NCBI GenBank assembly: GCA_003516025.1
Contig: CP023991.1
Location: forward strand, 841,374-873,373
Reading direction: 5' to 3'
DNA: 32,000 nt
Source of the DNA: Candidatus Saccharimonadota bacterium
GTDB lineage: Bacteria; Patescibacteriota; Saccharimonadia; Saccharimonadales; UBA4665
In this document: positions 3,101-29,351 of the stretch, one piece after another
Numbering within the stretch: position 1 is the stretch's first letter
Layout of the letters: each line of letters opens with the position of its first letter
Program-made: the position numbers and the translations under genes
The notes under the pieces: model-generated
What the model saw: the letters and a program-made list of their open reading frames with translations, nothing else
The model's database searches: none
Told to the model about the DNA's origin: nothing

Positions 3101-5023
3101 AGTAGACGAGAAGTCCTGACGGGCAGCCGGTAGGTTCGTCGTGCTCTGCCACGCTCCGATAGTACCGTTGGCATTTATTTGAGCGTATTGAACGCTATTT
3201 CTTAAAACATCGTTATTATCCTCGCCGCCGAGAATGTACAAGTAACCATTATAGACAGTGGCCGAGAACTCCTGAATACCAATTGATAAGCTTGTCGTGG
3301 CTTGCCAGGTACCTAGTGTGCCATCGGCATTGATGGGAGCGTATTGGACATCACTTCGCAAATTAGTACTATCCGAATCGCCAGCTATAATGTATACAAA
3401 GCCATTGCGCGCGGCGCTTTCAAAGTCTTGCCGGGCGGTCGCGAAGCTTGTCGTGGCTTGCCAGGTACCTAGCGTGCCATCGGCATTGATGGGAGCGTAT
3501 TGGACATCATTCTCAACGCCACCGCTTGTCTTGCCACCCATAATATACATATAGCCATCGTATGTAATGGCCGGAGCGCCTTGCCGGGCGGTCGCGAAGC
3601 TTGTCGTGGCTTGCCAGGTACCTAGCGTGCCATCGGCATTGATGGGAGCGTATTGGACATCATTCAAAAAACTTGAAGTACTCCGGCCACCAGCCAGAAT
3701 GTACATATAACCGTTATAGGCGAGAGTCGAATGACCGCTACGGGCGGTCGCGAAGCTTGTCGTGGCTTGCCAGGTACCTAGCGTGCCATCGGCATTGATG
3801 GGAGCGTATTGGACATCACTTGCATATTTACTACTAGTGCCGCCGCCGTTACTGCTAGTATAGCCACCAAGCATATACATATAGCCATTGTAAGCGACTG
3901 TAGTCTGGTCTACTCTTTCTGTAGAAAAAGCGTTCGTTGTGTTCCAAGCTCCGACGGAGCCGCCAGTTAGACCGCCACGAGTCACCTGTCCGCTTGCACT
4001 AAAGTCAATCATACCTTCGTTGTTACCACCGAGCTGGAAATCGCTCGTACTCGTGACAGTGACACTTGGGTCCACTGTTACCGGACCCTTGACCGATTTC
4101 ATGCCCTCAGCCACAACCGTTAAGCTGTCCTCGGTCAGCTCAAAGCGAGCGGTGGCAGAACCTGTGGAGCCGCCATCCGTTGCGTTAATAACCGGCGCCG
4201 GAATGCCAAAAACCAAGTATGTTTTATCTGCATTTTTACGGGCGATTTCCACGTTCTGGCGATCGGTATCCGAACCATAACTAATGTCGCCAAATAATGC
4301 CGGATCCGCGCTGTAGATGCCGACGGCTCCCCCGCTGCCTGGAACTGATTTAGCCTCTAATGAATCCGGCAATTGCAGCCTGTAGGAAAAGCGCATGGTA
4401 TCGCTGCCGGCTTTTGGAACGATAATGTCTTCTTTGAGGCCATTGTTCTTAAGGGTATATATTGCCTGCATACCGTCACTCATCGGGAATACAATATGCC
4501 CGTCAACCTGCTGCCCTACACTGGCTTTGAACTGAGGAATCAAACTGAAATCAAGGTTGGAATTGGTGTCGTGATAGGTCACACCCTTGCTCATATCCGT
4601 TGGTACATCAAGCGCGTATGTCGCGCTCCCCTTATCACCAGGAGTGCCGACTGATTGTCGCTGTAACTCGGGGGGCATATCGCTGCTTTTTACGGCATCC
4701 TTATTGAACTGGTACAGCTGTTGCTGCGCGTCATAGGTCAGTAATTTTGCGAGTTTGGCGTCGGTAGAACCGACCAGTTCATGCGTATCAGCAGACAGTT
4801 CATAGGCATTTTGGAGCAGCATCGACTGCATCACAGGCACTACCACAGAGAATACTAACAGCAGTGCGGTCAGGCCATTGCTAAGGCGCCAGCGTACACC
4901 GTAGCGTCTATCGTTTCTACGCCACCATGCCACCACGCAAATCCCGATATTCCGCAGATAGCCAGCAGTGCGGCGCAAAGCACCTCGTTTGTGATTTCTG
5001 TTACCGCGTAGTGACTGCCACAT
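200..5023 (-). CDS. Giant (1607 aa) membrane-anchored surface protein with about 18 Kelch-type beta-propeller blades and a C-terminal DUF1566/Lcl-like domain
   Basis: A single 4.8-kb ORF. It has a basic N-terminus followed by one hydrophobic helix (LTALLLVFSVVVPVM). About 18 repeats of roughly 50 aa carry the Kelch-like pattern YNGY[LMI]Y[VIM]xGG ... DVQYAPINA[ND]GT[VL]G[AT]W (DNA about 1150-3920). A Gly/Ser/Thr linker follows. The C-terminal 150 aa (DNA about 200-700) contains GWRYLEAAP...YSDWFLPSKDEL, resembling the DUF1566/Lcl C-terminal domain motif (W-x-LP-S/T-x-x-EL). The domain names come from motif recognition only. Confidence 0.8.
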   Translation of the reverse strand: MWQSLRGNRNHKRGALRRTAGYLRNIGICVVAWWRRNDRRYGVRWRLSNGLTALLLVFSVVVPVMQSMLLQNAYELSADTHELVGSTDAKLAKLLTYDAQQQLYQFNKDAVKSSDMPPELQRQSVGTPGDKGSATYALDVPTDMSKGVTYHDTNSNLDFSLIPQFKASVGQQVDGHIVFPMSDGMQAIYTLKNNGLKEDIIVPKAGSDTMRFSYRLQLPDSLEAKSVPGSGGAVGIYSADPALFGDISYGSDTDRQNVEIARKNADKTYLVFGIPAPVINATDGGSTGSATARFELTEDSLTVVAEGMKSVKGPVTVDPSVTVTSTSDFQLGGNNEGMIDFSASGQVTRGGLTGGSVGAWNTTNAFSTERVDQTTVAYNGYMYMLGGYTSSNGGGTSSKYASDVQYAPINADGTLGTWQATTSFATARSGHSTLAYNGYMYILAGGRSTSSFLNDVQYAPINADGTLGTWQATTSFATARQGAPAITYDGYMYIMGGKTSGGVENDVQYAPINADGTLGTWQATTSFATARQDFESAARNGFVYIIAGDSDSTNLRSDVQYAPINADGTLGTWQATTSLSIGIQEFSATVYNGYLYILGGEDNNDVLRNSVQYAQINANGTIGAWQSTTNLPAARQDFSSTAYNGYLYMFGGVLGSGAITNDVRYAKIDPAGATTTFGTTSQIGAVRALPCSVAYNGYIYVIGGSTSDSGSNNTTTVYRATINADGTIGTYGTVTALPQAKGSAGCTVANGYLYVVGGYTGTSSNSGTVRYVKINSNGTLASSWSNGTTLPSGNVGRVTVSYTAGNGTAYLYEVGSSLNGASNRLVHYASLNAGTGAVGSWNSTSSLISNYRDRYVTITNGRIYAYGGFANDDVSVARADVEYAAINNNGSLAAWQSTTAMPTAITSGTGVTVNGCIYQVGGQIANYVQSAMVQYACPSTDGSISNWNINQSLSSAATDVAASAYAGFIYAVGGNNTSGNLRLTQYAAVNNGGSGTVGGWSTNTSFTTGRYAHTSVAYNGYLYVLGGYSGNAYLNDVQYAPINANGTVGAWAATTSFPNSRYAHTSIVYNGYLYVMGGHNGSTYLNDVQYAPINANGTVGAWAATTNSTTARNSHTSVVYNGYLYVLGGYSGSSNLNDVQYAPINANGTVGAWAATTSFTTGRSSHTSVVYNGYIYVIGGYSNIRLNDVQYAPINANGTVGAWAATTSFTTARNGHASIVYNGYLYVMGGWDGTTEFSDVQYAPINANGTLGDWTTTTSLTTGRDTHAVAIYRGYLYATGGYDTTYQNYVQYAPLNMISREGKYSKLVDLGMAANITNISYTGTLRDGYNDISVRVAGTDGILGSNPVSTAITSTACSSSLPSVRYLMVSVELDDAQTGVFSDSSSILASLQDVTITYKQGHPAPDVRLRGGKTLQENAGLSPLDTCGDTASSGGSTGGSGGTGGAETYALGDTGPAGGIIVYDKSSFSDGWRYLEAAPNYDSSKPRWGCASTDIAGANGTAIGTGKQNTAAIVTGCADAGTAAKVADDYVLNGYSDWFLPSKDELTQVYLRNSFFSTAFPTGIFGYFWSSSDLLDGGHAYIQILSSGGESNGGKNSTFYILPIRQF
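1270..2010. repeat. Intragenic tandem repeat array A: 5 units of 150-153 bp (Kelch blades) with near-identical cores
   Basis: The string ttggcgttgatgggagcgtattggac starts at 1281, 1434, 1584, 1737 and 1890, giving spacings of 153, 150, 153 and 153 bp. Four units share a core of about 60 nt (gtggcagcccaggcgcccaccgtgccattggcgttgatgggagcgtattggacgtcattca) with 0-1 mismatches. Confidence 0.9.
3290..3840. repeat. Intragenic tandem repeat array B: 4 units of 153-156 bp (Kelch blades) with near-identical cores
   Basis: The string ccatcggcattgatgggagcgtattggacatca starts at 3321, 3477, 3630 and 3786, giving spacings of 156, 153 and 156 bp. Three units share an identical core of about 70 nt (gcgaagcttgtcgtggcttgccaggtacctagcgtgccatcggcattgatgggagcgtattggacatca). 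The 20-mer ttgatgggagcgtattggac is shared with array A, so it occurs 9 times in total. Confidence 0.9.
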
Positions 5024-5106
5024 TTTATATTTTTCTTTTAAGAAATAAGTTGTATTTTACCTACCTACTATAGCACATATAAGCATAGGCGGAAAATCTT
5101 AGCTTG

Positions 5107-8100
5107 CTACAGCATTGTCTTTGAGTAGTACATCGTAAGGTCACCGAGCTGGACATTCGCCCCGTTTTTCGCGCTCAGCCGTATTTTGAGCGTCAGATTA
5201 CTTGTCGAGTCATAAGCTCCAGTGAGCCCGGCAGTTGCAACATCACTCCACGCGGTGCTCATTCCGAGATTCTGGTAGTTATAGTTTGTGTCTACCTCTC
5301 CGTCGGTGTCCAGTATCTGGATGGCAATGGAACTATTAGCCGTACTGCTCGTCTTAGCCATCACTCGCAAGGCCGTTGCTTTAACTGTACTGAACGAAGC
5401 ACCACTTGGCACATGTATCCTCACCACTACGTCATAGCATTGCGCAGTAGTGCTGGAAGAGGTCCAGTTATAGAAACTGGTGTTATTAATACCGTCATAG
5501 CCGCTCGTCATCGTGCCATTGTTCGCGCTCACACAGGCGCTGTCACTCTGCGCGTCCAGTACGGCGCCTGCATACTCGGCTTGCAGCGCAATTTCGCCCG
5601 CACTCTGCGCGTTACCTTCCAGACTTACTCCGTACTCAGTAATAAGAACTCCGTTGGTAGCATCCCCTATTATTAGCCGGCCTCCATAAGATGTATCCAC
5701 CGTGAATATAGCGTTACTACTAGCATCCTGAACTTGAAACGCCGCTGCAGAGCTAACCAGTGACTTGACGACGGTTCCTATGGAAGCGTTATTGGTAAGA
5801 AGATTGATGCCACCCGTACCGGCTTGAATGTTAGTGAAACTTGCACCGTTTAACGAGCCAATATTTACTGCGGTCTTACCGGTACTCGTTGATTGGGTGG
5901 CAATATTAACTGTCTGCGTATTACCGGCAGCCGTAGTATTATTGCCAATTTCGACGGTGTTTGTTGCCGTGGATTGCCCAAGCGTAATAGTTCCCGTACC
6001 GCCAGTAGTGCCGAGCTTATAGTTTGATGTGGTGGCGCCTATAACCGTAAAGTCACCGCCAGAAGTACCGGCACCTACTTTGAGCGTAATGGAAGAACTG
6101 CTGTTAGTTGCTCCAATGATAATGTCCTGGTCTCCCGTGCCGGTACCGATATTTATGGCGTGAGCTGCCGCATTGGTACCGACGTTTATTATTGCCGCGT
6201 TAACCGTTCCCATGTTAAGAGTTCCACCAGCAGCGGTATCTAATGCCCCGGACGCGGTAATAGCGAGCAGTATGTTACCGCTTGAATCCTGGGCTTGCAA
6301 AATATTCGCTGTCTGGCCTGAAGCGCCTTGGATAATCATGCCAGCTACACCCGAAGCACTACCCACGACAGACAACTTGGCATTGGTGCCGGAACCTGGC
6401 GTTGTGGTAACGGTTGTGGTATTCAATAGTACGTTAACACTGTCGGTGTATGAGTGCGCTACAGCAATATCAATTTTTCCGTCAGCATTATAGTCGCGCA
6501 TCGCTAGACCATCAGGATGAGCATTAACAACGTAGGTGATAGGGGTACCAAAAACCGCCGAACCATTGTTTTCTAAGACAGACACTGTGTTAGTGCTCAC
6601 ATTAGTAACAATTATTTCGGCCTTGCCATCCCCTGTCAGATCGGTAGCAGATACCTTGCCAGTATTAGTAGCTGTATGATTCGCAGGCGCATAGAAAGTA
6701 CCAAAGCCATTATTTAAAAGTACAGCTACGGTATTATCGCCTGGCGTGTTGGCCGTTACGATATCCGTTTTATTATCACCGTTGAAGTCGCCCATTGCGA
6801 CATCTACCAAACTGCCTGAGCTCGTAACAGCATAACTACCCATAGCACTGAACCCACCACTGCCATTACCTGCCATAGTGAACAAATTATTGCCACTGTT
6901 ACTACCGGTATAAACCAAGTCAAGGTTGCCATCACTATTAATGTCCCCTGTCGTGACCCTGCCAGCTCCACTTGTACCTGAAATGCTTGTCCTGGCTGCG
7001 AAGGTGCCACTGCCATTGTTCTTAAGGATGTACATCACCGTATCAGCCACCACCAGATCTGCCTTACCGTCGTTAGTAAAATCTGCCGCTATCAAACCGG
7101 TAATATTGTTAGCCGTACCACCGGTGTAATCAACTTTAGCTGCGAGGGTGCCATTGCCATTATTGATAAAGACGGATATCAACCCGGTTGTCTTATTTGC
7201 AGTAGCAACATCTGCTTTACCGTCGCCGCTGAAATCTGCCGCTACAATTTCCGTCGGGCCACTTCCCGAACCGGTAGTGTAGTCAACTTTAGTAGCAAAG
7301 GTGCCGTCACCGTTGTTCATAAGTACCGATACGGTGTTAGCATTACGGTTAACCGTAGCCAGGTCAGGCTTACCATCGCCATTGAAGTCGGCTGAGTTAA
7401 TTTCAATAGCTGCGTCACCGGCTATGTAGTTAACTTTAGCATCGAAAGTAATTGGTCCAGTCGTTGTCACCGCGCCACTGCCAAACACACCGGCGCCAAC
7501 TATCAACCCAGTACCGATAGTACCGACGCCATCAATATTAAAGTTGGCATTCTGTATGGAAGTACCGTTATTTATGTAGTTACCGGATCCTCCGGTACCA
7601 CAATTACCACTGCTGAGACAAATAGTAGTAGATCCTAATGCTTGGCCGTTAATGGAAGTTATACTGGTTAAGTTACCCGCATTATCCAAGCGAATAGCGT
7701 CACCAGTTCGCAAGTTACTGCTGGTATTGATGTCCCCGGCGACATTTAATTTGTAACTACCCGTCGTCAGCGTGCCGATACCGACATTACCAGCTGATGG
7801 CTGCAAGATGACATCACCATTGGCAATGATTCGCATCGCATCGCGCGCGTTAGCATTGTCGTATATATAGAAAGTGTTATTACCCTGTTTACCAATCTGA
7901 TATTTAGTAGTTCCCGCATCCTGGATATTAATACCTGTTTGCTGGCTACCCTGCACATTGTTTATGTCTATGAATGCGACATTAGCTCCAGTACTTTGGA
8001 ACAAGGCCACTTGGGCGCCTGCTCTTTGTACAGTTAAGCCATAAGTCGTAGAAGCCACGCCAACGCTCAATGAGCTGGTTGCGTAAGCCGTTGTAGCTTG

Positions 8101-9963
8101 CAACGCGCCAGCGATACCGGTTCCGGTGATATTAAAGTGACCGGTTTGAGCAATGCCTGGCGTAGCGGCTTGTAAGTTTACAAAACTACCACCTGCGCCG
8201 CCAGCCGCACAAGTACCGCCAGTAACAATACCGCCCTGTACCACTTGGTTCGTAAGTACTTGGCCACCCGTACATGCCGTTGTCGCACCAATCGTTCCCC
8301 CGACGCGATATACGGTAGAGGCGTTAATATCCCCTGCTACATCAAGCGTGTAAGCAGGCGCGATGCTCTGGCCAATAGCGACCCGGAGGTTCTGCGCGTT
8401 ACCCGCCCCATCAGCTTCTCCATATACCGTTAACGCGTTAGCCGAACCAACCCGCAGTGAATAGCTTTGCTTAGCGCCCGCAGCAGCCGTGCTATCAATT
8501 CCCAAATCGACTAATGTCATCTGGCCACCGTTGGTCGGCAGAACAATACCACCGTCTACATTTAATGCGGCGCCAACTTGAATTTGGTTACTGCTATTTA
8601 CCTGGAACATATTAATATAACCAGTACCTAACGCATCGGCTGCGCTGATCCATTTGCCATTAGCTATAGTCAAAGCTCCGCCGGACTGCGGGTTTGCCGT
8701 ACCAAGACCTAACCCGCCCATCAGGTAGTTGATAGCGCCAGTGCCGGTTTGTTGCAAGCTGCCATTCATAGTGGCATTAAAGATATTCAATAAATTACCG
8801 CTGGAATCGAGGCGCTGTGTACCAGTGCCCGCACCAGTATTGAAACCGGTGGTTGTGTTGACCGTCGGTGCCGTAAGATTACCGTCTTTATCAAACTTAG
8901 CAAGTACATCTGTATTATCATTTTGCAGTTCCAATAAGTTACCAGTTTGGCTGGTTGTGCCACGAATAATCTGCGCTACATTGCCCGCAGCAGTCGACAC
9001 TACTGCGAGGTTAGTAGCGCTGGCTACGGTTCCACTCGTCTTGCCAATACGTACCGTTACACCGTTTGATCCAAGGTAAGATACGCCGTTAGGGGCTATG
9101 CGGAGGGCGTCGTTTCCATTTACGTCTTTTACCTGCAACACATCTGCAGTTTGTCCAGACATGGCCCGAAGAACTCCGGTGACGCTGCCAATAGCCGCAC
9201 TTTGTATATTAAAATTGGCAGTCTGCGGGCCACCTGTACTATTTTGAATATACCCATTGCTGCCAGTCGATGCCGCAAAACCACAGCTAGTGGAGTTTTG
9301 AACACATAATGTATACGTTCCTGCCGCACCCTGGTCAGCAATCTGGAATGACTGGTTTCCAACTGTCGGCTGCAAGATACTTAATGTGCTCGTAAATCCG
9401 GTTGTGCTGTTGTACTGCGCCAGCTGGCCTGCCCTGAACGCGTATGGCACGCCAGTCAGCTTCAGGCGTGGGTTCATTTCACCATCATATGTTGGCGTCG
9501 CGGTTGGAGTGGTTCCACCAATGTTCATAGTCAGCCACAAGTTCTGATCCCAGTTGATGCCCGAGAAAGCCGTCAGGCTTCCTAAGTTTGCGCTAATGTA
9601 GCCGTTAACTACTTTTACCCGGTTATCATTGCCGGTCGTAGCGCCGTTACTGTCATACCATGTCTCTGTCCACAGCAGTGTACCAGCATTAGCCGCACCC
9701 TGGCCAGCAGGTCCACCAGCAGTCCCGCCATCGTACAGTTTGAATTGGATGTTATAGAAACCATCCGGCACTACGGCGCCGCTGGCGGTTTGCAGGCGGG
9801 CCTGGAAGTTCAGCGTGTTATTCGTCGCCGTTAAGGCGGTCGCTGTTTGAGTTTGTAAAGCAAAGCTTCCAAGGAATATCGAAGCCATACTTAACACACT
9901 CACCATGATAGATATCAGGCTACGGGAGAACAGTACTCGTTTTTGAGGTGTTTGTTGGAACAT
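5107..9963 (-). CDS. Giant (1618 aa) secreted or anchored surface protein with a tail-fibre-like N-terminal domain, Gly/Thr/Asn-rich beta-rich regions and a 7-repeat FG-GAP/VCBS propeller
   Basis: A single 4.9-kb ORF with an N-terminal signal/anchor (LISIMVSVLSMASIFLGSFALQ). Seven repeats of the FG-GAP/VCBS type lie at DNA about 6450-7410: DFNGDGKPDLATVN, DFSGDGKADVATAN, DFTNDGKADLVVAD, DINSDGNLDLVYTG, DFNGDNKTDIVTAN, DLTGDGKAEIIVTN and DYNADGKIDIAVAH. The N-terminal segment (NFQARLQTASGAVVPDGFYNIQFKLYD...LWTETW...VPYAFRAGQL) resembles a domain common at the start of tail-fibre-like proteins. The function is inferred. Confidence 0.8.
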   Translation of the reverse strand: MFQQTPQKRVLFSRSLISIMVSVLSMASIFLGSFALQTQTATALTATNNTLNFQARLQTASGAVVPDGFYNIQFKLYDGGTAGGPAGQGAANAGTLLWTETWYDSNGATTGNDNRVKVVNGYISANLGSLTAFSGINWDQNLWLTMNIGGTTPTATPTYDGEMNPRLKLTGVPYAFRAGQLAQYNSTTGFTSTLSILQPTVGNQSFQIADQGAAGTYTLCVQNSTSCGFAASTGSNGYIQNSTGGPQTANFNIQSAAIGSVTGVLRAMSGQTADVLQVKDVNGNDALRIAPNGVSYLGSNGVTVRIGKTSGTVASATNLAVVSTAAGNVAQIIRGTTSQTGNLLELQNDNTDVLAKFDKDGNLTAPTVNTTTGFNTGAGTGTQRLDSSGNLLNIFNATMNGSLQQTGTGAINYLMGGLGLGTANPQSGGALTIANGKWISAADALGTGYINMFQVNSSNQIQVGAALNVDGGIVLPTNGGQMTLVDLGIDSTAAAGAKQSYSLRVGSANALTVYGEADGAGNAQNLRVAIGQSIAPAYTLDVAGDINASTVYRVGGTIGATTACTGGQVLTNQVVQGGIVTGGTCAAGGAGGSFVNLQAATPGIAQTGHFNITGTGIAGALQATTAYATSSLSVGVASTTYGLTVQRAGAQVALFQSTGANVAFIDINNVQGSQQTGINIQDAGTTKYQIGKQGNNTFYIYDNANARDAMRIIANGDVILQPSAGNVGIGTLTTGSYKLNVAGDINTSSNLRTGDAIRLDNAGNLTSITSINGQALGSTTICLSSGNCGTGGSGNYINNGTSIQNANFNIDGVGTIGTGLIVGAGVFGSGAVTTTGPITFDAKVNYIAGDAAIEINSADFNGDGKPDLATVNRNANTVSVLMNNGDGTFATKVDYTTGSGSGPTEIVAADFSGDGKADVATANKTTGLISVFINNGNGTLAAKVDYTGGTANNITGLIAADFTNDGKADLVVADTVMYILKNNGSGTFAARTSISGTSGAGRVTTGDINSDGNLDLVYTGSNSGNNLFTMAGNGSGGFSAMGSYAVTSSGSLVDVAMGDFNGDNKTDIVTANTPGDNTVAVLLNNGFGTFYAPANHTATNTGKVSATDLTGDGKAEIIVTNVSTNTVSVLENNGSAVFGTPITYVVNAHPDGLAMRDYNADGKIDIAVAHSYTDSVNVLLNTTTVTTTPGSGTNAKLSVVGSASGVAGMIIQGASGQTANILQAQDSSGNILLAITASGALDTAAGGTLNMGTVNAAIINVGTNAAAHAINIGTGTGDQDIIIGATNSSSSITLKVGAGTSGGDFTVIGATTSNYKLGTTGGTGTITLGQSTATNTVEIGNNTTAAGNTQTVNIATQSTSTGKTAVNIGSLNGASFTNIQAGTGGINLLTNNASIGTVVKSLVSSAAAFQVQDASSNAIFTVDTSYGGRLIIGDATNGVLITEYGVSLEGNAQSAGEIALQAEYAGAVLDAQSDSACVSANNGTMTSGYDGINNTSFYNWTSSSTTAQCYDVVVRIHVPSGASFSTVKATALRVMAKTSSTANSSIAIQILDTDGEVDTNYNYQNLGMSTAWSDVATAGLTGAYDSTSNLTLKIRLSAKNGANVQLGDLTMYYSKTML

Positions 9964-10528
9964 TTGTGTTGAGTTGTTTATTTGTTTAGACGAACTATTT
10001 TGATTTTAGTTTTGCGGTAATGTATTTTTACCAACTATTTGTTTTGTCTAAACTCCCTACTATTTTCTCTTTTTACCATAAGAGGTACAACCCTCTTATG
10101 GTGTGAGATCATATGGATAAACTATTGACAAAAACACTACAGAATACACAATATAATGTTGTTTTTAAAGCTACAAATATTATGTAAACAGTTTATAACA
10201 GAGAAAAGTATTAAAATAATCATAAAATATTTCTACTGGTATATGATGTAATTATTATTACGATAATATTTTTCTTCAATAATTCCTCTGAGTTATCCAC
10301 AGCAATATTGTTTTCGCCCTGCTACAGGTATCAGTTGTAAGCGCAGATTCGTCAATTAAAGAACCTTTATCCAAGTACAAGGCGTCTCGCACCGTGCCGT
10401 TAAACAACCATTTTCTACCAGCTCTATACTGATGTTGCTAGCCACGGCCATGAAATTAAGACTCGACTTATATTGATCGGAAAATCATGTGGAGTGGCTA
10501 TGAGAGCAATCCAATTCATAACAACGCG

Positions 10529-12634
10529 CTAGTAGTTACTGGCATACAGGGCTTTTATTTCATCACTCGACAGTTCACGATCATAAATTCTGAGTTCATC
10601 TATACTGCCTTGCCATACATTTGTACCAGTTACCCATGATCCTATCCTCGCGTTGCTTAAAACAGTAGTGAATGTTTGCGTTCTCGATACACGAAATATG
10701 CTGTCCACATATACTCTCATGATGATGCCATCGTAGGTAACACATATATGGCGCCACGTATTATTTGACCATACACCGGAAGAGTATCGTTCGTCAGTTC
10801 CGGTACCATCGCCAACAATGAGAGTATCACCGTCCTGGGATACACGAAGCCCATCAGAACCTTCAACGTCGCCATAGTAAAACATAGTTCTTTTAGCAGA
10901 CCCTGACGCATCCGTGGTCATACCCCAGGCGCATACGGTTCGAGCTGCAGCTCCTACTGGAAACGGCGTAGCATTTGTGAGGGCTATATAATTCGAAGAT
11001 CCACTAAAGTGGTAGGAGCTGTTGGGCCTAGCTTTCCTGTCGGGCGCAAGAGTCGCTCCGCTAACGGTACCGTTATTTGAGTACGGTGTCGCGTCACGTG
11101 CATTACCGCTGAACGGCCAGTAGCCCACTAGACCGGCGTTGATATTGCCAGGCGTAGTGTCCGTAGGTGATGAATTAAGATTGATTTGAGAGTTGTAACT
11201 TTTAGCCTGAACCGATACTTCGCTCGCGGTCAGTGCCCGATTATATGCTCGGACGTCATCAATGGAACCGTCAAAGAACCAGTTACCAAAGCCACCTGAA
11301 CCGATACCAAGCACATTGTTATAGGAGCGCATTGTTGATGGCCCCGTTGCCGTGCCCATTGAAACACCATCAATATACAGTGTCATGGTACGCGCCGCAT
11401 ACGTTGCAGTTACCAGATGCCACTTATTTTTATCAACTGTCGTTGAGCTTACTGCTATGCTCGAAGAGCCAGTGGCGGGCCATATTTCAAAATAATAACC
11501 GTTTGCGTTTGCCATAATGCCACTATTGTATCCCTGCTTACCGACAGCAACCCCACTTGTGCCACCCTTGAGCCACGCCGACAAAGTCCAACTCGCCGAT
11601 TCGCTGCCTTGCATAAGTATGGGATTGTTAAAGTTATCTATCTCAATGTAGTCTGATGTTCCGTTAAACGACATCGCGCCATTCGCCTTTCCGCCACGGT
11701 CCATGACGTTAGAGGTGCCCGTTACAACTCCTTCATTGCCGTACGGAGTATTATCTTTAGCATTTCCATCGAGTTTCCACTGCCCGACGAGCCCGTTTTG
11801 GCCGCTAGCAGCCTGAATACCGGGATCATATTGCTCATACAATTGCATGATTTCTGTATTTGAGAGTACCCGGTTATATATACGAACATCGTCGATAGAT
11901 CCAATGAAATTATCACCGCCGGTGCAAGCACTGGTTGTCGACTCACCGCCAATACAGGTAGGATTACTTTTGGTATACCGTACAGTAGCCCCGCCGTACG
12001 AGTCTGATCCTGCGAGTACTCCATTAACATACAGAGCGATGTTATTCCCATCATAGGTACCAACTATATGCGACCATGTACCATTGGCTACGAGCGACCG
12101 CGCAGCACAAGCTTTCCGGTAACCGCTGCTGGTGCTCACGATAAAAGCTAACTGATATGCTGCGCACTGATCAGCCGTGGAACCGGTAGTAAACAGCGCA
12201 TAACCTCCGGACTCAGTGGTGGATATAATTTTTTGTTCGTTGTTAGTAGCGTTAGACACATTAATCCAGGCATTTACGGTTATATTACTCTTAGGTTGAA
12301 GGGTGTCCGCAAAGGGGATTGAAATATAAGTACCCAAGCCGCTGAATGAGTACGCGCTGTTAGCGCCGCCCTTACGATCGGAAGCCAGTGTCGCTCCGCT
12401 TACCGTGCCATCGCCACTGTTAGGCGTGAAATCTTTGGCATTACCATTCATTTTCCACCAGCCAACCAAACCGCTTTGCAGGTTAATACTATCAGTCGAT
12501 GACGTTAACGTACTGCCTCCTAGCGCAGCGTAAGCACCACCACCAATACAGCCAACCACCACTACGCCCAGCGCAACGAATAATATGGTTTTCTTAGTGG
12601 GGCGCCCAAAGATTGAGCGTAAGCGTCTTGACAT
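10529..12634 (-). CDS. Membrane-anchored protein with three LamG / concanavalin-A-like lectin domains (701 aa from the ATG)
   Basis: The ORF track starts at a TTG at 12652. The first ATG (MSRRLRS...) is at 12634, followed by a TM helix (ILFVALGVVVVGCIGGG). Three modules each begin GLVG[WQY]W..(N/D/S)GNA(K/R)D.TP and each end GSID(D/E)(V/L)R(I/A)Y(N/D)R.L(S/T), the hallmark of Laminin_G_3-type domains. Confidence 0.8.
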   Translation of the reverse strand: MSRRLRSIFGRPTKKTILFVALGVVVVGCIGGGAYAALGGSTLTSSTDSINLQSGLVGWWKMNGNAKDFTPNSGDGTVSGATLASDRKGGANSAYSFSGLGTYISIPFADTLQPKSNITVNAWINVSNATNNEQKIISTTESGGYALFTTGSTADQCAAYQLAFIVSTSSGYRKACAARSLVANGTWSHIVGTYDGNNIALYVNGVLAGSDSYGGATVRYTKSNPTCIGGESTTSACTGGDNFIGSIDDVRIYNRVLSNTEIMQLYEQYDPGIQAASGQNGLVGQWKLDGNAKDNTPYGNEGVVTGTSNVMDRGGKANGAMSFNGTSDYIEIDNFNNPILMQGSESASWTLSAWLKGGTSGVAVGKQGYNSGIMANANGYYFEIWPATGSSSIAVSSTTVDKNKWHLVTATYAARTMTLYIDGVSMGTATGPSTMRSYNNVLGIGSGGFGNWFFDGSIDDVRAYNRALTASEVSVQAKSYNSQINLNSSPTDTTPGNINAGLVGYWPFSGNARDATPYSNNGTVSGATLAPDRKARPNSSYHFSGSSNYIALTNATPFPVGAAARTVCAWGMTTDASGSAKRTMFYYGDVEGSDGLRVSQDGDTLIVGDGTGTDERYSSGVWSNNTWRHICVTYDGIIMRVYVDSIFRVSRTQTFTTVLSNARIGSWVTGTNVWQGSIDELRIYDRELSSDEIKALYASNY

Positions 12635-16666: not shown

Positions 16667-16980
16667 AATCTCAGTGTACCATAACCATCTTCAGCTAATC
16701 ATGTACTTGTCATTAACATAATCATGAAAAACTACCAGCTTTACACCTACATTCATTGCTTTTTTACTGTTTTTATGTTAATGTAATATGGTTTCGTCGA
16801 GTGCGTCCCGTCTACATGCCTCTTGAGGTATTTTTGCTGGTTGAGGCAACTCCGAAGCACATTAACAGCAAGTTTTTGTTACGTTACGTTTACGACCGGA
16901 CATGCGCCCACTTACCGGCAAATGAGTGTGTTCCCGGCCGTAAACCTTCCCTCCTCCCGACACTTCCTGAAAGGCATCCA

Positions 16981-17382
16981 ATGTTCTCTCCTGGAATCGT
17001 TCCCTTCCTGTCCAGCATCATCGTGTTCACCGCGACCCTGGTCGTTGCTTTTCTGTACGGGCGCGTCAAGCGCATGCCCAATGAAACGGAGACGACGCGC
17101 ACCGTCCTGGCATGCCTGCGAATCGCCTTCCCGGCCGTTGGCATCCTGCTCCTGGTATTATCGAGAAGTCACACCAGCTCCGTCCAACCAGCGACTGATC
17201 TTGATCTGTTCGCCCTGGGTGCGGGACTGGTGGCTATCTTCCTCGCCATCATCGGCGCCCACATTGCCGGAGCCGAGTCGCTCAGCCTGCGGACCACCGC
17301 TTCGCGCGTCTGGATCGCTGTCGGCTGTACCGCCGCGTGTTTTCTGATGGCGATCGGGATCTGGTTCATCTACACCGTCTAG
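16981..17382 (+). CDS. Hypothetical polytopic membrane protein (133 aa, about 4 TM), first gene of the high-GC cassette
   Basis: The first ATG inside the GC-rich part of ORF 16756..17382 is at 16981 (MFSPGIVPFLSSIIVFTATLVVAFLY...). There are four hydrophobic segments. Third codon positions are mostly G/C, unlike neighbouring genes. The stop is TAG. No family was recognised. Confidence 0.6.
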   Translation: MFSPGIVPFLSSIIVFTATLVVAFLYGRVKRMPNETETTRTVLACLRIAFPAVGILLLVLSRSHTSSVQPATDLDLFALGAGLVAIFLAIIGAHIAGAESLSLRTTASRVWIAVGCTAACFLMAIGIWFIYTV

Positions 17383-17431
17383 ACCGCTCTGTTGTCCTTC
17401 CCCGCAACCACCACAGAGTTAGGAACTCACC

Positions 17432-17719
17432 ATGTCCCTGTCCTGGACATTCGTGTTCTGGATCGCCAGCGCAGCAGTGTTCACCGGATTTGCCTGGCAC
17501 TTCTACATGAAGTCCGCCGAGGTGACCCCGGAACGATTGGACCCCACCGTGGGCCGAGCGATTTTCTGCGCGAATGGAAGCATCTTCTGCTTCACCTGGT
17601 CCATTCTCACCCTGAACGAAGCAGGCAGTACCGCGGCGTTCTTCGCCATGGTCGGCGTGCTCCTGGCAGGTCTGCTGGTCCAGTGGTTGCTCAAGCGGCA
17701 CATCACCGCCCCGCGCTAG
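17432..17719 (+). CDS. Hypothetical membrane protein (95 aa, about 3 TM), second gene of the high-GC cassette
   Basis: MSLSWTFVFWIASAAVFTGFAWHFY... has three hydrophobic helices. Reading the codons gives a GC3 of about 80%. An AGGAA lies upstream of the ATG. This frame is preferred over the overlapping antisense ORFs because of its G/C-rich third positions. Confidence 0.6.
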   Translation: MSLSWTFVFWIASAAVFTGFAWHFYMKSAEVTPERLDPTVGRAIFCANGSIFCFTWSILTLNEAGSTAAFFAMVGVLLAGLLVQWLLKRHITAPR

Positions 17720-17764
17720 CACAGGCAGTAAACCAACGACTGACCCCCTAAGGAGAACCGTTCC

Positions 17765-18316
17765 ATGACCATCGCCAGTTACCTGATGGACCGCCTGCTG
17801 ACCTTCGCCGTCAACATCGACGAGGTGCTCGGCAGTCCCAACCCCCAGCGGTCGTACGGCCAGTTCCGCATCTGGAAGATCGAGGACGGATCACGCGGCC
17901 AGGACGAGCAGGCCCCGGACCTCACCGTCCACGCCGAAGGCGACCCGCGCGGCGAGGAGCACATGACCAACATCCGCTGGTTCCCTTCGTGGGTACAGCC
18001 CGTGCTGGTCACCGACAACTACCAGGGCCTGGTGGTGTTCTACAGCCCCGGCGGCACTCCCACGCAGATCGTGTTCTCCACGGTCGACCGGAAGCGCCGC
18101 GTCAGCTACCACATCGACCAGGACCTGCGGACCGGTGAGATGACCTTCATCACCGACTACTCCGGCCACATCTGGATGGCTTCGCCACCCGACCTGCAGT
18201 ACCGCTCTTCGCAGCAGTTCGACGCCGAGGTCATGAAGCTCATCAACGACATGTCGCCCGACATGATCGTGGGTCTCGTGATCCCCGGCCTCATCAGGGA
18301 AGCCCTGCACGGCTGA
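17765..18316 (+). CDS. Hypothetical soluble protein (183 aa), third gene of the high-GC cassette
   Basis: A strong SD (AAGGAG) lies 9 nt upstream of the ATG. The first 46 codons have about 41 G/C third positions (about 89%). There is no TM segment and I recognise no motif. Confidence 0.65.
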   Translation: MTIASYLMDRLLTFAVNIDEVLGSPNPQRSYGQFRIWKIEDGSRGQDEQAPDLTVHAEGDPRGEEHMTNIRWFPSWVQPVLVTDNYQGLVVFYSPGGTPTQIVFSTVDRKRRVSYHIDQDLRTGEMTFITDYSGHIWMASPPDLQYRSSQQFDAEVMKLINDMSPDMIVGLVIPGLIREALHG

Positions 18317-18524
18317 GCATCCGCTCATGCCGCGACCAGTCGCCCAGGAGGTGACATATGTAACAGAGACTTGCTCCAGGTGGAGAGGTGACGGGATCCG
18401 TTGATGTTTGAGCGCTTAACAGCCCTCGTAAAAACGTCAACCCCCCGCCAACCTCTCCACCTGCAGCACCCCGAACGCATGACATGCAATCAAGTATTTT
18501 CGTGCCTTCAGACAAGCTGCAGGA

Positions 18525-18558
18525 ACAGAAAAGCCCGCCTCTTTTGAGACGGGCTTTT
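18525..18558. terminator. Rho-independent terminator of nrdJ, possibly bidirectional and also closing the plus-strand cassette
   Basis: The minus strand reads GCCCGUCUC-AAAA-GAGGCGGGC followed by UUUUCUGUU, a 9-bp stem with one G-U pair. The plus strand forms a similar stem with one C-A mismatch, followed by UUUUAGG. A second small perfect hairpin (ttgcgac-ttt-gtcgcaa) lies at 18567-18583. Confidence 0.7.
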
Positions 18559-18605: not shown

Positions 18606-21452
18606 TTAAGAGCAGCCGGTAGTCGACCCGCAACTGGAGCAGACATAGCAGCTTCCGGCGCGCTGGGTCTGATTGCCACAGTTGTAGCACAGTGGCGCGG
18701 TGCTGTCGCCGCCACCAAGCTTGGCGTCGGCGGTCGCTACAGCAGGCGCTTCCGTTACAGCTGGTGAATGTTCGTGAGCTTCGTGCTCGCGGACGGGCGT
18801 GGCCGCGGCAGCGGGCTGGTTAGCGGTAACATCGACCTTCTGGTCATTGTCAGCATTACCGAGCAAGCTGGTCTGGTCGTCACTTGGCATGTCGTCGAAG
18901 CTGGCCAGACCAAGCTCCAGGCGGTCATCGAAGCTGAGGTAGTCCAGGGCCAAACGGCGGAAGATATAGTCAGTAATCGAACTGGCGGTGCGGATGTCGC
19001 TGTCGTCGGTAATACCGCTCGGCGCGAATGACGTACCGCGCATCGTCTTAACATAGCTCTTTAGTGGTACGCCGTACTGCAGGCCATGGCTGACGCTGAT
19101 CGCGAAAGAGTCCATCAAACCGGAAAGCGTACTTCCCTGCTTTGACACGTTAATGAACAGTTCGCCCGGAGTACTATCTTCGAATTCACCGACCGTAAAG
19201 TAACCCTTGAGGTCACTCAGGCGGAATTCGTAGGTGCGGCCGTTACGGCGCTTTGGCAGCTCGCGCTTCACGGCACCCTTCACGATGATGCGGTCGTTAG
19301 TGGTTTCAACGGCAGCCGTAGCAGCCGGCTCGGTCTTCTCGGAATCTGCTTTCTTCGCCATGCTGAGCGGCTGGGCAACCTTACAGTTGTCGCGGTAGAT
19401 AGCGACGGCTTTCAGGCCCATCTTCCAGGCGTCAATATGCAATTGCTCGATATCTTCGACAGTAGCCTCTTCGGGCAGGTTGACGGTCTTAGAGATCGCG
19501 CCGGACAGGAATGGCTGAACGGCAGCCATCATCTTAACGTGACCGAGGTAGTGAATACTGTTGTCACCCATTGAGCAGGCGAAGACGCTCAGGTGTTCCG
19601 GCTTGAGAGCTGGAGCGCCAACGATAGTCTTTTCGGTGTCGATGTAGGCGACAATATCCGCGACCTGCTGTTTGTCGTATCCCAATGCTTTAAGCGCGCG
19701 TGGTACGGTCTGGTTCACGATATGCATCGTTCCACCACCGACCAGCTTCTTAACTTTGACCAGGCCGAGATCCGGCTCGATACCCGTAGTGTCGCAGTCC
19801 ATCATCAGGCCGATAGTACCGGTAGGCGCCAGTACGGAAGCCTGTGAGTTGCGGACGCCGTGCAGTTCACCCTGCTCGACGGCTTCATCCCAAGCAGCGG
19901 CAGCGGCACTGAGGAGCTCTTCGGAAACGAGTGACGCGTCGATAGCCGAAACTGCTTCGCGGTGCATTTTGAGCACATTGATCATGCCTTCGCGGTCCTT
20001 ATGGAAGCCAGCGAACGGACCGACTTTCTGGGCGATCTTGGCGCTGGTAGCGTAAGCTTGGCCAGTCAGCAATGCAGTGATGGCAGCGGCCTGGGCGCGG
20101 CCTTCTTCGGAGTCGTACGGCAGGCCTTGAGCCATCAGGAGGGCGCCGAGGTTAGCGTAGCCGATACCGAGTTCGCGGTAGGCCCGGGCGTTCTTGGTAA
20201 TGCCTTCGGTCGGGTAAGCACTGTAGCCGACCAGGATTTCCTGGGCGGTAAAGATCAACTCAACTGTGTGGATAAAGCTCTTAATATCGAACGAACCGTC
20301 GTCCTTCAGGAACTTCAGCAGGTTGAGGCTGGCCAGGTTACAGGCCGAGTTGTCGAGGTGCATGTATTCGGAGCATGGATTGGAACCGTTGATACGGCCG
20401 GCATTCGGTGTGGTGTGCCACTTGTTAATGACCGTGTCGAACTGCATGCCGGGGTCGGCACATTCCCAGGCCGCCTTAGCGAATTCGCGCATGATGTCGC
20501 GGGCTTTCACGGTAGCAACGGTGCGGCCGTCTTTTGTTGCCTTGAGGTCCCAATCGGCGTCGCTTTCGACGGCTTCCATGAATTCGTCGGTAACACGGAC
20601 CGAGTTGTTAGCGTTCTGGTACTGGACACTGAAGATGTCTTTACCGTCGAGGGTCATATCGAAGCCGGCAGCTTCCAGGGCGCGGGCCTTGCGCTCCTCG
20701 ATCATCTTGGAACGGATAAATTCCATAACGTCCGGATGGTCAACATTCAAGATCACCATCTTGGCAGCGCGACGGGTTTTACCACCACTCTTAATGGCAC
20801 CGGCGCTACTGTCGGCACCACGCATGAAGCTGAGCGGGCCGCTGGCGGTACCGCCGCTTTGGGAAAGAGGCTCCACGCTGGAACGGATAGCCGACAGGTT
20901 GATACCGGCACCGGAACCACCCTTAAAGATCATGCCTTCTTCGACATACCAGTTCAGGATCGACTCCATAGTGTCCTGGACACCGAGGATAAAGCAGGCG
21001 CTGGCCTGCTGAGCGCGTTCTGGCGCGCCGATGTTGAACCAAACCGGGCTGTTGAAAGCAGCGCGCTGGGTAGCCAGTACGTACTTCAGTTCTTCGCGGT
21101 AGTCTTCGGCTTCGGTAGAATTAGACCCTTCGCTGAAGTAACCTTCCTGGATTCCCTGGCGCACGACAGTATCAACCACGCGGTCGATCAGGTGCTTCAG
21201 GCTGGCTTCGCGCTCAGGAGTGCCGGGAGTACCGGTAAAGTACTTCTGAGCCACGATGTTGATTGAGTTCTGGCTCCAGCCTTCCGGCATTTCAATACCG
21301 TTTTGCTCGAAGACGTTCTTGCCGGTCATCGGATTAGTGATGACGCTGTCCCGAGTCGTCCACTTTAGCTGGTCGTAAGCCTTGGTCTTCGGTTCCGTAA
21401 ATAAACGGCGATTTGACTCGGCTTTATCGGCCTTACTCGTTGTTTGCCCCAT
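18606..21452 (-). CDS. nrdJ: Class II (adenosylcobalamin-dependent) ribonucleotide reductase
   Basis: A 948-aa ORF with the typical NrdJ N-terminus (...WSQNSINIVAQKYF...). The catalytic region includes NPCSEY and SACNLASLNL. The C-terminal tail has a CxxC...CxxC pattern (CYNCGNQTQRAGSCYVCSSCG). A GGAGGG SD lies upstream and nrdR is adjacent. Confidence 0.9.
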   Translation of the reverse strand: MGQTTSKADKAESNRRLFTEPKTKAYDQLKWTTRDSVITNPMTGKNVFEQNGIEMPEGWSQNSINIVAQKYFTGTPGTPEREASLKHLIDRVVDTVVRQGIQEGYFSEGSNSTEAEDYREELKYVLATQRAAFNSPVWFNIGAPERAQQASACFILGVQDTMESILNWYVEEGMIFKGGSGAGINLSAIRSSVEPLSQSGGTASGPLSFMRGADSSAGAIKSGGKTRRAAKMVILNVDHPDVMEFIRSKMIEERKARALEAAGFDMTLDGKDIFSVQYQNANNSVRVTDEFMEAVESDADWDLKATKDGRTVATVKARDIMREFAKAAWECADPGMQFDTVINKWHTTPNAGRINGSNPCSEYMHLDNSACNLASLNLLKFLKDDGSFDIKSFIHTVELIFTAQEILVGYSAYPTEGITKNARAYRELGIGYANLGALLMAQGLPYDSEEGRAQAAAITALLTGQAYATSAKIAQKVGPFAGFHKDREGMINVLKMHREAVSAIDASLVSEELLSAAAAAWDEAVEQGELHGVRNSQASVLAPTGTIGLMMDCDTTGIEPDLGLVKVKKLVGGGTMHIVNQTVPRALKALGYDKQQVADIVAYIDTEKTIVGAPALKPEHLSVFACSMGDNSIHYLGHVKMMAAVQPFLSGAISKTVNLPEEATVEDIEQLHIDAWKMGLKAVAIYRDNCKVAQPLSMAKKADSEKTEPAATAAVETTNDRIIVKGAVKRELPKRRNGRTYEFRLSDLKGYFTVGEFEDSTPGELFINVSKQGSTLSGLMDSFAISVSHGLQYGVPLKSYVKTMRGTSFAPSGITDDSDIRTASSITDYIFRRLALDYLSFDDRLELGLASFDDMPSDDQTSLLGNADNDQKVDVTANQPAAAATPVREHEAHEHSPAVTEAPAVATADAKLGGGDSTAPLCYNCGNQTQRAGSCYVCSSCGSTTGCS

Positions 21453-29135: not shown

Positions 29136-29351
29136 ATGCAAATAGCTACCATTTCGATATTCCGAAAGAACATCAAGCACTACATCGATACAGTCGACAA
29201 GGATCAGGAGCCGCTCATAATTACGCGTTCGGATAACGTGGCCGTCGTAGTTTTACCCTTAGCGCTATACAACACAGTTTCCTGGCTCGACGAAGAAAAC
29301 CAGCGTAAGCAGATCGTGCGAACCAGGCTCCATAGAGCACTCAAACAATAG
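29136..29351 (+). CDS. Phd/YefM-family antitoxin-like protein (71 aa), with no adjacent toxin gene
   Basis: MQIATISIFRKNIKHYIDTVDKDQEPLIITRSDNVAVVVLPLALY matches the Phd/YefM N-terminal pattern (sxxefRxnlxxxldxVxxxxepvxItrxgxxxaVvls). Confidence 0.65.
   Translation: MQIATISIFRKNIKHYIDTVDKDQEPLIITRSDNVAVVVLPLALYNTVSWLDEENQRKQIVRTRLHRALKQ

Follow-up and report, generated by a model that had tools for sequence, protein, structure and literature searches.

The stretch of DNA studied here comprises 32,000 nt of the genome of a Candidatus Saccharimonadota bacterium (GenBank assembly GCA_003516025.1, contig CP023991.1, positions 841,374 to 873,373 of the forward strand) and is referred to as the window. 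Between nrdJ and a gene for an 89-amino acid (aa) thioredoxin-like protein, which is followed by ileS, the window contains three plus-strand genes (A, B and C), flanked on both sides by non-coding DNA in which a promoter, a structured leader and a structured 3' element are predicted. An earlier reading of the window, made without database searches (the sequence-only reading), had drawn attention to these genes as a cassette of foreign composition and had considered that the organism might be a Saccharibacterium, which is supported. The genes and features are listed below by position in the window (GC3, fraction of G and C at third codon positions; TM, transmembrane; SD, Shine-Dalgarno; dG, folding free energy).

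16756..16784, plus strand: promoter-like site (TTGCTT at 16756-16761, 17-nt spacer, TG at 16776-16777, TAATGT at 16779-16784)
16791..16858, plus strand: leader hairpin P1, in which a variable apical insert sits on the basal helix GUUUCG-uc-GAGU / ACUC-CGAAGC
16866..16890, plus strand: leader block GCACATTAACAGC with the small hairpin P2 and the 5' duplex partner (CAGCAAGUUUUUGUUACGUUACGUU); repeat I2
16888..16945, plus strand: leader hairpin P3 (GUUUACGACCGG...CCGGCCGUAAAC), dG -22 kcal/mol, z -3.0
16981-17382, plus strand: gene A, 133 aa, four TM segments, GC3 0.76, SD sequence GAAAGG at 16969-16974
17432-17719, plus strand: gene B, 95 aa, small membrane protein, GC3 0.82
17765-18316, plus strand: gene C, 183 aa, soluble, acidic, no TM segment, GC3 0.92, AAGGAG at 17750-17755
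18347..18376, plus strand: 3' duplex partner (GGAGGUGACAUAUGUAACAGAGACUUGCUC), including an SD-like AGGAGG followed by ATG-TAA; repeat I2
18372..18468, plus strand: long imperfect 3' hairpin (CCAGGUGGAGAGGU...ACCUCUCCACCUG), dG -54.1 kcal/mol, z -10.1
18463-18480, plus strand: conserved 3' tail GCAGCACCCCGAACGCAT, 16 of 18 positions identical in three loci
up to ~18519, plus strand: block TCGTGC..TTCAG, end of the unit, from a three-locus alignment
18529-18558: native nrdJ terminator, directly beyond the end of the unit in the window (inverted repeat I7, terminator-like matches)

The protein lengths given in the sequence-only reading (133, 95 and 183 aa) were confirmed, as were the AAGGAG before the third gene and the soluble nature of C, in which no TM segment was found. 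For A, which had been expected to contain about four TM helices, four segments were predicted, at residues 6-24, 42-60, 74-92 and 112-130. The expectation of about three TM helices in B held for one strong segment (residues 69-87); two further stretches, aromatic-rich and hydrophobic, are weaker and were recognized by eye from the sequence. In some sources (NCBI, ENA) gene A is called as a 188-aa protein that starts at an ATG at 16816. This call is in error, because the extension, spanning 16816-16980, coincides with a conserved non-coding leader that contains hairpins and shows insertions and deletions that are not multiples of three, and the 133-aa form preceded by GAAAGG is the likely product of gene A.

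None of the three proteins matched Pfam, PHROGs, NCBIfam or PADLOC, in agreement with the earlier statement that none could be assigned to a known family, and A and B showed no detectable homology to each other. A search of C against 5.8 billion proteins returned only C itself. A word-indexed search of the same 5.8 billion proteins returned only the query for A as well; this search was run with a concatenated A+B query in which the self-match of B was missing, so its outcome covers A only. An AlphaFold2 model of C was of low confidence (pLDDT 51.5 overall; 69-82 in the beta-rich core at residues 101-160) and gave no match to a known fold or to a PDB entry.

Relatives were collected by searching one genome per species for NrdJ, which yielded eleven Saccharibacteria (NrdJ identity 71-76% for ten of them and 69% for the eleventh, L010). 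The gene order ftsZ-nrdR-nrdJ-89aa-ileS is found in all eleven, and the spacer between nrdJ and the 89-aa gene measures 31-252 bp in each of them compared to 1,939 bp in the window. Homologues of A, B and C were not detected in these eleven genomes, in which the site is empty. This comparison of junctions confirms that the segment is a genuine insertion relative to the relatives, situated between housekeeping genes and oriented opposite to the neighbouring genes, as had been proposed, and places the event, in the lineage leading to this genome, between the terminator of nrdJ and the promoter of the 89-aa gene. The insert of ~1.8 kb extends from roughly 16,720-16,750 to roughly 18,520, and the native flanks are still discernible on both sides: the nrdJ terminator at one end and, at the other, a TACACT -10 box just upstream of the 89-aa gene, which is also present in L004 and L042. 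The borders of 16,890 and 18,470 given earlier correspond to hairpin positions and not to the limits of the insert; the functional unit exceeds the compositional segment, running from ~16,750 to ~18,519 and beginning with the AT-rich promoter region. No tRNA gene is present in the window and no integrase or transposase domain was found among its called neighbours, as the sequence-only reading had also noted, nor was a flanking direct repeat or target-site duplication found at the repeat ends.

Two observations concern the genes next to the insert. In several of the relatives (89-aa genes of L004-L012 and L042), the -10 box of the 89-aa gene (TGnTACACT or TAGACT) ends ~7-10 nt before the start codon, which suggests that the mRNA of this gene is leaderless or nearly so in those relatives, compared to a leader of ~190 nt in the cassette. 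The 11-mer TTATGTTAATG, which holds the extended -10 box of the cassette (16773-16783, plus strand), has a perfect inverted copy at 16711-16721 on the minus strand (repeat I10). The inverted copy faces the 89-aa gene and lies ~45 nt upstream of its TACACT box, and a second, divergent promoter may have arrived with the insert. On the other side lies nrdJ (18606-21452, minus strand), encoding a class II ribonucleotide reductase that is 59-63% identical to proteins of Acidimicrobiia and related metagenome-assembled genomes of Actinomycetota and 53-57% identical to those of cultured Actinomycetota such as Micromonospora and Rhodococcus. Actinomycetota make up most of the best 80 NrdJ matches after those to Saccharibacteria, and the GC3 of nrdJ (0.68) is the highest of the native genes in the window. 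Saccharibacteria and Actinobacteria may have exchanged nrdJ long ago.

Homologues of C were found by an exhaustive HMMER search over 1.84 billion cluster representatives, which gave seven matches, three of which are genuine: P0004 (111 aa), P0005 (167 aa) and P0007 (158 aa), 33-37% identical to C by BLASTP. C is thereby the founder of a four-member family with the shared core motif LVFSTVDR..SYH.D. Matches to the giant proteins P0002 (7,482 aa), P0003 and P0006 were rejected as artefacts, because their scores are sums over many weak repeat stretches, none of which exceeds 8.7 bits and most of which lie far below that. A profile built from the four proteins found no further relatives, the profile of the family found none in IMG/VR, and searches of GenBank phages and PLSDB plasmids (blastn, tblastn) gave no match.

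Both full-length homologues of C are encoded in similar GC3-rich cassettes, the third (P0004) being a cut-off copy. P0007 lies on contig L085, where the order is ileS, the 89-aa gene, a 178-aa gene, an AT-rich gap and then a plus-strand array of genes of 76, 44, 158 (the C homologue), 186, 96, 68 and 58 aa. IleS and the 89-aa protein of L085 are 73% and 60% identical to those of the window, indicating that L085 is the same chromosomal neighbourhood in a related Saccharibacterium with a different and larger content. P0005 lies on L084, in an array of genes of 78, 61, 167, 194 and 115 aa that runs parallel to that of L085. In both contigs a second promoter and leader of the same design directly follow the first unit (L084 2575-2838, L085 7222-7433), from which we conclude that units stand head to tail, and gene content differs between the units of L084 and L085. 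The cargo of these two loci gave only sub-threshold noise from TM segments in searches of Pfam and PHROGs.

The 194-aa protein of L084 (1345-1929) and the 186-aa protein of L085 (6179-6739) are 44% identical and rich in Cys and His (e.g. HCRVHLFEHCPGGCH). This family is absent from the unit in the window, gave no match in Pfam or PHROGs, and might bind metal. The third locus, L086, is a 731-bp contig from the same ENA sample as the genome of the window, in which the C homologue is truncated at 111 aa. Its ribosome-binding site context matches that of C in the window (AAGGAGAAC.GTTCCATG), and the DNA is 76% identical over 102 nt. The GC-rich DNA of L086 (61-66%) drops to ~43% GC soon after the stop codon, and this contig is explained either by a cassette that has decayed in a different genome or by a small chimera made in assembly.

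The composition of the segment was compared with that of the rest of the window, which has an overall GC content of 51.3%. Genes A, B and C contain 60.4, 60.8 and 64.1% GC, respectively, and a block of 1,336 nt over the three genes contains 61.8%, compared to 57.9% for the most GC-rich non-overlapping block of that size. Their GC3 values (0.76, 0.82 and 0.92), which agree with the third-position G/C of about 75-90% estimated before, lie 3.0, 4.0 and 5.5 standard deviations above the mean of the 17 other genes in the window (0.572 ± 0.063; maximum 0.684, in nrdJ), and the six largest tetranucleotide distances of the window all fall at 16.8-17.8 kb. The segment is atypical, and the compositional shift described earlier was borne out, with GC fractions of 0.52 to 0.73 in individual 60-nt lines. 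Some details of the earlier account were not: GC3 is 0.60 in ftsZ and 0.63 in priA, not about 55%; and stacked antisense open reading frames are not confined to the segment, since nrdJ has antisense frames of 434 and 248 aa and ftsZ has some too. The GC excess resides mainly in C-ending codons (C3 0.54 vs. 0.36; G3 0.31 vs. 0.27). Codon adaptation was ruled out as its source: the high GC3 does not reflect a high-expression bias of the host, because the ribosomal protein genes rplU and rpsU have GC3 values of only 0.53 and 0.60.

An abrupt change in composition is also what a chimeric assembly of Saccharibacteria DNA with DNA of a high-GC organism would produce, and the junction from GC-rich to AT-rich DNA in L086 could itself be chimeric. 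The segment is, however, present with 100% identity, both junctions included, over 20,552 bp in an ENA assembly, 6,941 bp in a JGI metagenome and 5,035 bp in an SRA run assembled by Logan. As these assemblies come from different groups, tools and samples, a chimera is very unlikely, and the conserved promoter, leader and 3' element described below extend across the borders of composition and are found again in L084 and L085. Judged from the assemblies, we regard the probability that the segment is an artefact as close to nil. Exact-protein look-ups with NrdR and L21, made to find sister strains, retrieved the same strain only, with identical contigs.

High GC3 is not peculiar to the window. 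The genes of L085, L084 and L086 have GC3 values of 0.62-0.86, 0.76-0.91 and 0.91-0.97, respectively. GC3-rich coding is a persistent property of the family and not the relic of a fresh event, because it is found at 0.62-0.97 in four loci although identity to C is no higher than 33-37% among its homologues.

The sequences that precede the first gene in the window, L084 and L085 can be aligned with one another, and their structure was compared in five units (the unit of the window and the first and second units of L084 and L085). The promoter-like site is embedded in a conserved block, ATTGMTTTTTTAY-N4-TTTATGKTAAT, which is kept in the three first units, while a version with TATAAT heads the second units of L084 and L085, so that each of the five units has its own promoter-like block. 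The region 16720-16790 has a GC content of 27%, and the TGn extended -10 box resembles the style found upstream of the native 89-aa gene in the relatives. A consensus promoter scan missed the site, because its -35 box is weak.

The promoter-like block is followed by a leader of ~190 nt with three hairpins. The basal helix of P1, with its 2-nt bulge, is present in five of five units and carries an apical part of ~4 to 60 nt; one of its base pairs shows a fully compensatory change from G-C to A-U. In all five units the sense strand of P1 is more stable than its reverse complement (-20.7/-13.1, -31.7/-15.0, -19.2/-13.4, -12.4/-7.6 and -11.7/-8.3 kcal/mol). The block GCACATTAACAGC that comes next is 82-91% identical between loci. 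In each of the other four units the counterpart of P3 opens with GUUUG and closes with AAAC around a differing paired interior, with folding energies of -29 to -44 kcal/mol and a z-score of -7.9 in the second unit of L085; in the window the P3 pattern occurs once, with 0 occurrences expected by chance. RNAalifold found changes on both sides in 9 of 46 pairs of the leader. Across first and second units P3 was judged from individual folds, because MAFFT placed it one base out of register and RNAalifold then lost the helix.

The DNA downstream of the last gene likewise aligns between the window, L084 and L085 and forms a 3' element of ~170 nt, consisting of a GTAACA block, a 97-nt imperfect hairpin, the tail and a further block to ~18,519. 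In the window the hairpin is built on inverted repeat I1, with 18-nt arms that are 94% complementary. It is also found in L084 (z -9.1) and L085 (z -6.6), with a conserved base and a variable centre, and in the 3' element 10 of the 31 consensus pairs have changed at both positions. The hairpin is not a canonical intrinsic terminator, since no T-run follows it. Behind the tail comes the promoter of the next unit in L084 and L085 and the native nrdJ terminator in the window.

The two non-coding ends are complementary to each other. A stretch of 21-25 nt in the leader (16866-16890) can pair with the start of the 3' element (18347-18376), with a predicted duplex energy of -27.0 kcal/mol in the window (z -6.8), -30.4 kcal/mol in L084 and -25.3 kcal/mol in L085 and with z-scores down to -7.7. 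In each of the three loci this energy was reached by none of 1,000 shuffles. The sequences of the duplex partners differ between the loci and their complementarity is kept; the long-range duplexes depart from Watson-Crick pairing in five pairs altogether, each of them G.U on the sense strand. Identity between loci is 71-79% for the non-coding ends (82-91% in blocks) compared to 64-66% for the DNA of C, the one gene that the loci have in common. These results are suggestive of structured ends that act probably as RNA; RNA rather than DNA is indicated because P1 is stabler on the sense strand and because all five mismatches are G.U on that strand.

The 3' duplex partner has a further peculiarity. 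At 18345-18362 (plus strand) it contains AGGAGGTGACAT-ATG-TAA, a strong SD sequence with a start codon and an immediate stop, and at the same place L084 and L085 have ATGAAAGTGA(T/G)GTAA, with an ORF of four codons. All of these lie inside the 3' duplex partner, and the arrangement may be a by-product of the pairing sequence.

Neither the leader nor the 3' element was found in the eleven empty-site genomes, in the rest of the window or in the viral contigs compared, and no other copies were found in the window or in ~3 Mb of compared loci. Rfam 15 gave 0 matches at gathering score in the window, L084, L085 and L086; in E-value mode only generic hairpin or miRNA noise appeared, with no toxin small RNA family above it. 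Scans of IMG/VR with the leader, P1, P3 and 3' tail patterns returned nothing or matches at chance level by nhmmer with the two element alignments: P3 had no match, and the seven loci matching the 3' tail pattern scored at chance level. One match to the leader pattern in metagenome contigs (L139) lies inside a rhomboid protease gene and was dismissed as chance.

The 21-25-nt stretches can also be read as inverted repeats at the DNA level, marking either a non-autonomous mobile element or a segment that is flipped relative to a fixed promoter (phase variation) by a recombinase encoded elsewhere. The imperfect inverted repeats of I2 at 16867-16882 and 18360-18375 bracket exactly the GC-rich part, the same arrangement is found in L084 and L085, P3 and the 3' hairpin fold equally on both strands, and the promoter is not enclosed by the repeats, which would suit a switch based on inversion of coding DNA. 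No transposase, invertase or target-site duplication was found within the 32 kb, though, and the window holds no other copy. Gene order is the same in every one of the five contigs with C (NCBI, ENA, JGI and Logan), and the three that were compared as DNA are identical to the window and in the same orientation. Moreover, conservation reaches well past the repeats on both sides, and mismatches that are G.U on the sense strand in five of five cases are what RNA pairing, but not a pair of DNA repeats, would predict. A DNA-level element of this kind is, in our view, distinctly unlikely.

We consider it slightly better than an even bet that the segment from ~16,750 to ~18,519 is a single unit from a small and lineage-restricted family of expression cassettes, each of them self-contained. 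In the mechanism that we propose, A, B and C would be transcribed from the promoter of the unit as one mRNA, of which both untranslated ends would pair and close a panhandle. This pairing, together with the terminal hairpins, could protect the mRNA from nucleases. Alternatively, it could form a double-stranded processing stalk at which each unit would be cut from a longer transcript; precursors of rRNA and the mRNAs of phage T7 are processed via such double-stranded stalks. The conserved non-coding ends might further supply the homology for gain, loss and exchange of units at the site, and exchange through these ends would account for a cargo that is variable and fast-evolving. Because two of the three proteins are membrane proteins, the cargo may act at the cell envelope.

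A more far-reaching version of this proposal is a new gene-cassette system of Saccharibacteria, which belong to the candidate phyla radiation (CPR). In this system self-expressing units, bounded by a structured leader and a 3' hairpin element that are conserved and pair with each other, would stand in arrays at a chromosomal ileS/nrdJ hotspot, would be exchanged between lineages via these ends without an integron integrase and would carry fast-evolving, persistently GC3-rich envelope ORFans for interaction with a high-GC host or defence against it. This version we hold to be rather unlikely.

The origin of the cassette had been explained by the sequence-only reading as a recent, un-ameliorated acquisition from a high-GC donor, most attractively the actinobacterial host of the epibiont. 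Such genes could have been taken up, for instance, by natural competence and would not yet have drifted in composition. The insertion and the atypical composition stand, with GC3 values at z 3 to 5.5, the top tetranucleotide outlier of the window and an empty site in eleven relatives, and the adjacent nrdJ, 60-63% identical to that of Acidimicrobiia, suggests past gene flow between the phyla. Cultivated Saccharibacteria, moreover, grow on Actinobacteria and are naturally competent (PMC10633639). The recent host origin is not supported. No homologue of C in a recognisably actinobacterial context was found among the 1.84 billion representatives and no homologue of A among the 5.8 billion proteins, and the phage and plasmid collections are without a match. 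A related array occupies the same locus in a related species (L085), and a recent event is argued against by C proteins that are only 33-37% identical yet all GC3-rich. The unit also has a native-type TGn promoter in 27%-GC DNA and a conserved leader, both common to the other cassettes and neither of which looks actinobacterial. Proline in the cassette is encoded by CCC in 55% and by CCG in 25% of cases, which differs from the codon use typical of Actinobacteria. Direct transfer from an actinobacterial host is thus not supported and the explanation as a whole is unlikely; an ultimate origin in a high-GC genome is possible.

Alternatively, the unit could derive from a phage or plasmid of Saccharibacteria, much like a moron or a hyperplastic region, and have remained after this element integrated and decayed; the repeated motifs of promoter and hairpin would then be the element's regulatory punctuation. 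The composition of the unit is unlike that of the chromosome, and the cargo consists of ORFans, namely small membrane proteins and small basic proteins. Groups of small ORFans are separated in L084 and L085 by a hairpin with a promoter behind it, an arrangement like that described for the PeSL motifs of T4-like phages (PMC2839356, PMC4122927). Against such a remnant, no phage or plasmid hallmark gene is present in any of the loci, neither a relative of C nor a match to P3 was found in IMG/VR, where the tail matches are at chance level, and GenBank phages and PLSDB gave no match. The unit, furthermore, occupies the same chromosomal place in two species. Mobile elements are, in addition, usually AT-richer and not GC-richer than their hosts. 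We judge a phage or plasmid remnant to be quite unlikely.

Several points weigh against the expression cassette that we prefer. The window holds a single unit, with no second copy of either element in its 32 kb, and the non-coding elements are found in three loci only, so that the covariation, based on 3-5 sequences, carries little statistical weight. L084 and L086 are short unplaced metagenome contigs, and apart from such contigs the family has so far been seen only in the related Saccharibacterium of L085. A and B have no detectable homology to the membrane proteins of L084 and L085. The promoter and transcription start of the cassette, like the RNA pairing between its 5' and 3' ends, are predictions. 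For P3 and the 3' hairpin, folding is about as favourable on one strand as on the other, and a role at the DNA level is therefore possible for these two. Finally, the persistence of GC3 values up to 0.92 in a genome of 51% GC is not explained by the cassette model.

Saccharibacteria have tiny genomes of ~1 Mb, and to our knowledge almost nothing is known about how they gain or control accessory genes. The unit described here offers a concrete case, a 1.8-kb insert that is delimited against eleven empty sites and has a predicted promoter and predicted structured RNA ends of its own. If these ends are the borders of exchangeable units, they would represent a new route of gene flux in CPR bacteria and, in addition, a pair of RNA elements absent from Rfam. 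The maintenance of GC3 values up to 0.92 in genomes of 51-55% GC, across proteins that are ~35% identical, bears on the question of composition in reduced genomes. If the unit is merely a lineage-specific operon, the analysis still corrects the unsupported idea of host transfer and the start of gene A.

Elsewhere in the window, the stretch at 9750-10750 is the most AT-rich (GC 0.33-0.40) and ranks second after the cassette as a tetranucleotide outlier; it is situated between the gene for a 1,618-aa FG-GAP protein and that for a 707-aa Laminin_G_3 protein. The former is one of two adjacent giant genes at 200-9963 (minus strand), encoding proteins of 1,607 aa (Kelch/beta-propeller repeats) and 1,618 aa (FG-GAP repeats), which are probably surface proteins of the epibiont. 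The GC fraction at second codon positions of these genes (0.51-0.52) is unusually high relative to their GC3 (0.47-0.52). Directly upstream of priA, at ~29136-29351 (plus strand; coordinates converted from L267 2778-2993), a gene for a 71-aa PhdYeFM-type antitoxin was found, with no obvious toxin partner called beside it.

The unit was compared with known systems in which small groups of genes are bracketed by structured elements. PeSL elements (promoter-early plus stem-loop) are mobile regulatory cassettes of T4-type phages (PMC2839356, PMC4122927). As in PeSL, composite motifs of hairpin and promoter stand at the borders of small, variable ORFan groups, the content varies at the same place between relatives, and a double role of the motifs in expression and in shuffling by recombination is plausible. 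The promoter of the next unit comes after the 3' hairpin and tail in L084 and L085; the window has a single unit. Unlike PeSL, the unit is chromosomal (ileS, nrdJ), with no phage genes nearby and no relatives in viral contigs. Its motifs are far longer (a three-hairpin leader of ~190 nt and a 3' element of ~170 nt) and show complementarity between 5' and 3' ends, and its cargo exceeds the host in GC content. Its motifs are unrelated to PeSL in sequence, and recombination between them is a proposal.

Integron cassettes with attC sites are similar in being compact, in one orientation and each terminated by a long and imperfect hairpin, conserved at the base and variable in the centre, in carrying variable and foreign-looking cargo, and in forming arrays, as seen in L084 and L085. 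However, no IntI integrase is present among the genes called over the 32-kb window, and the base of the hairpin (CCAGGTGGAGAGG / CCTCTCCACCTG) lacks the R''/R' core sites (RYYYAAC...GTTRRRY), with no GTTRRRY at the 3' end. Integron cassettes, moreover, mostly lack promoters and are expressed from a common Pc promoter, in contrast to the units described here, each of which comes with a promoter-like block and a leader.

Long-distance pairing between 5' and 3' ends is known from the mRNAs of type I toxins (fbi/tac of hok; AapA1 of Helicobacter pylori), with which the unit has in common transcript ends that are predicted to be complementary over ~20 nt or more and first products that are hydrophobic membrane proteins. 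In contrast to these mRNAs, which encode one peptide of <60 aa, the predicted mRNA of ~1.7 kb would encode three proteins of 95-183 aa, and no antisense RNA gene is evident, no antisense promoter having been flagged at the relevant place. The bracketing of each unit by the predicted pairing is also reminiscent of the RNase III stalks of rRNA and phage T7.

With classical genomic islets the unit has in common its atypical composition, its absence from relatives, its opposite orientation and its ORFan genes, but it differs from them in having no integrase, tRNA, direct repeat or donor homologues and in its conserved regulatory ends of native style, which are common to the other cassettes. The unit was also set against insertion sequences and miniature inverted-repeat transposable elements, which have terminal inverted repeats. 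An imperfect inverted repeat of 16-25 nt brackets its GC-rich part; conservation continues outside this repeat, and the mismatches are G.U on one strand. No target-site duplication was seen at the repeat ends, no transposase was found, and there were no further copies in the window or the ~3 Mb of loci. Because it fails defining features of each, the unit is no member of the PeSL, integron or 5'-3'-paired mRNA families, and we rate it as a small acquired accessory cassette with conserved RNA-like ends of a kind that has not been described before.

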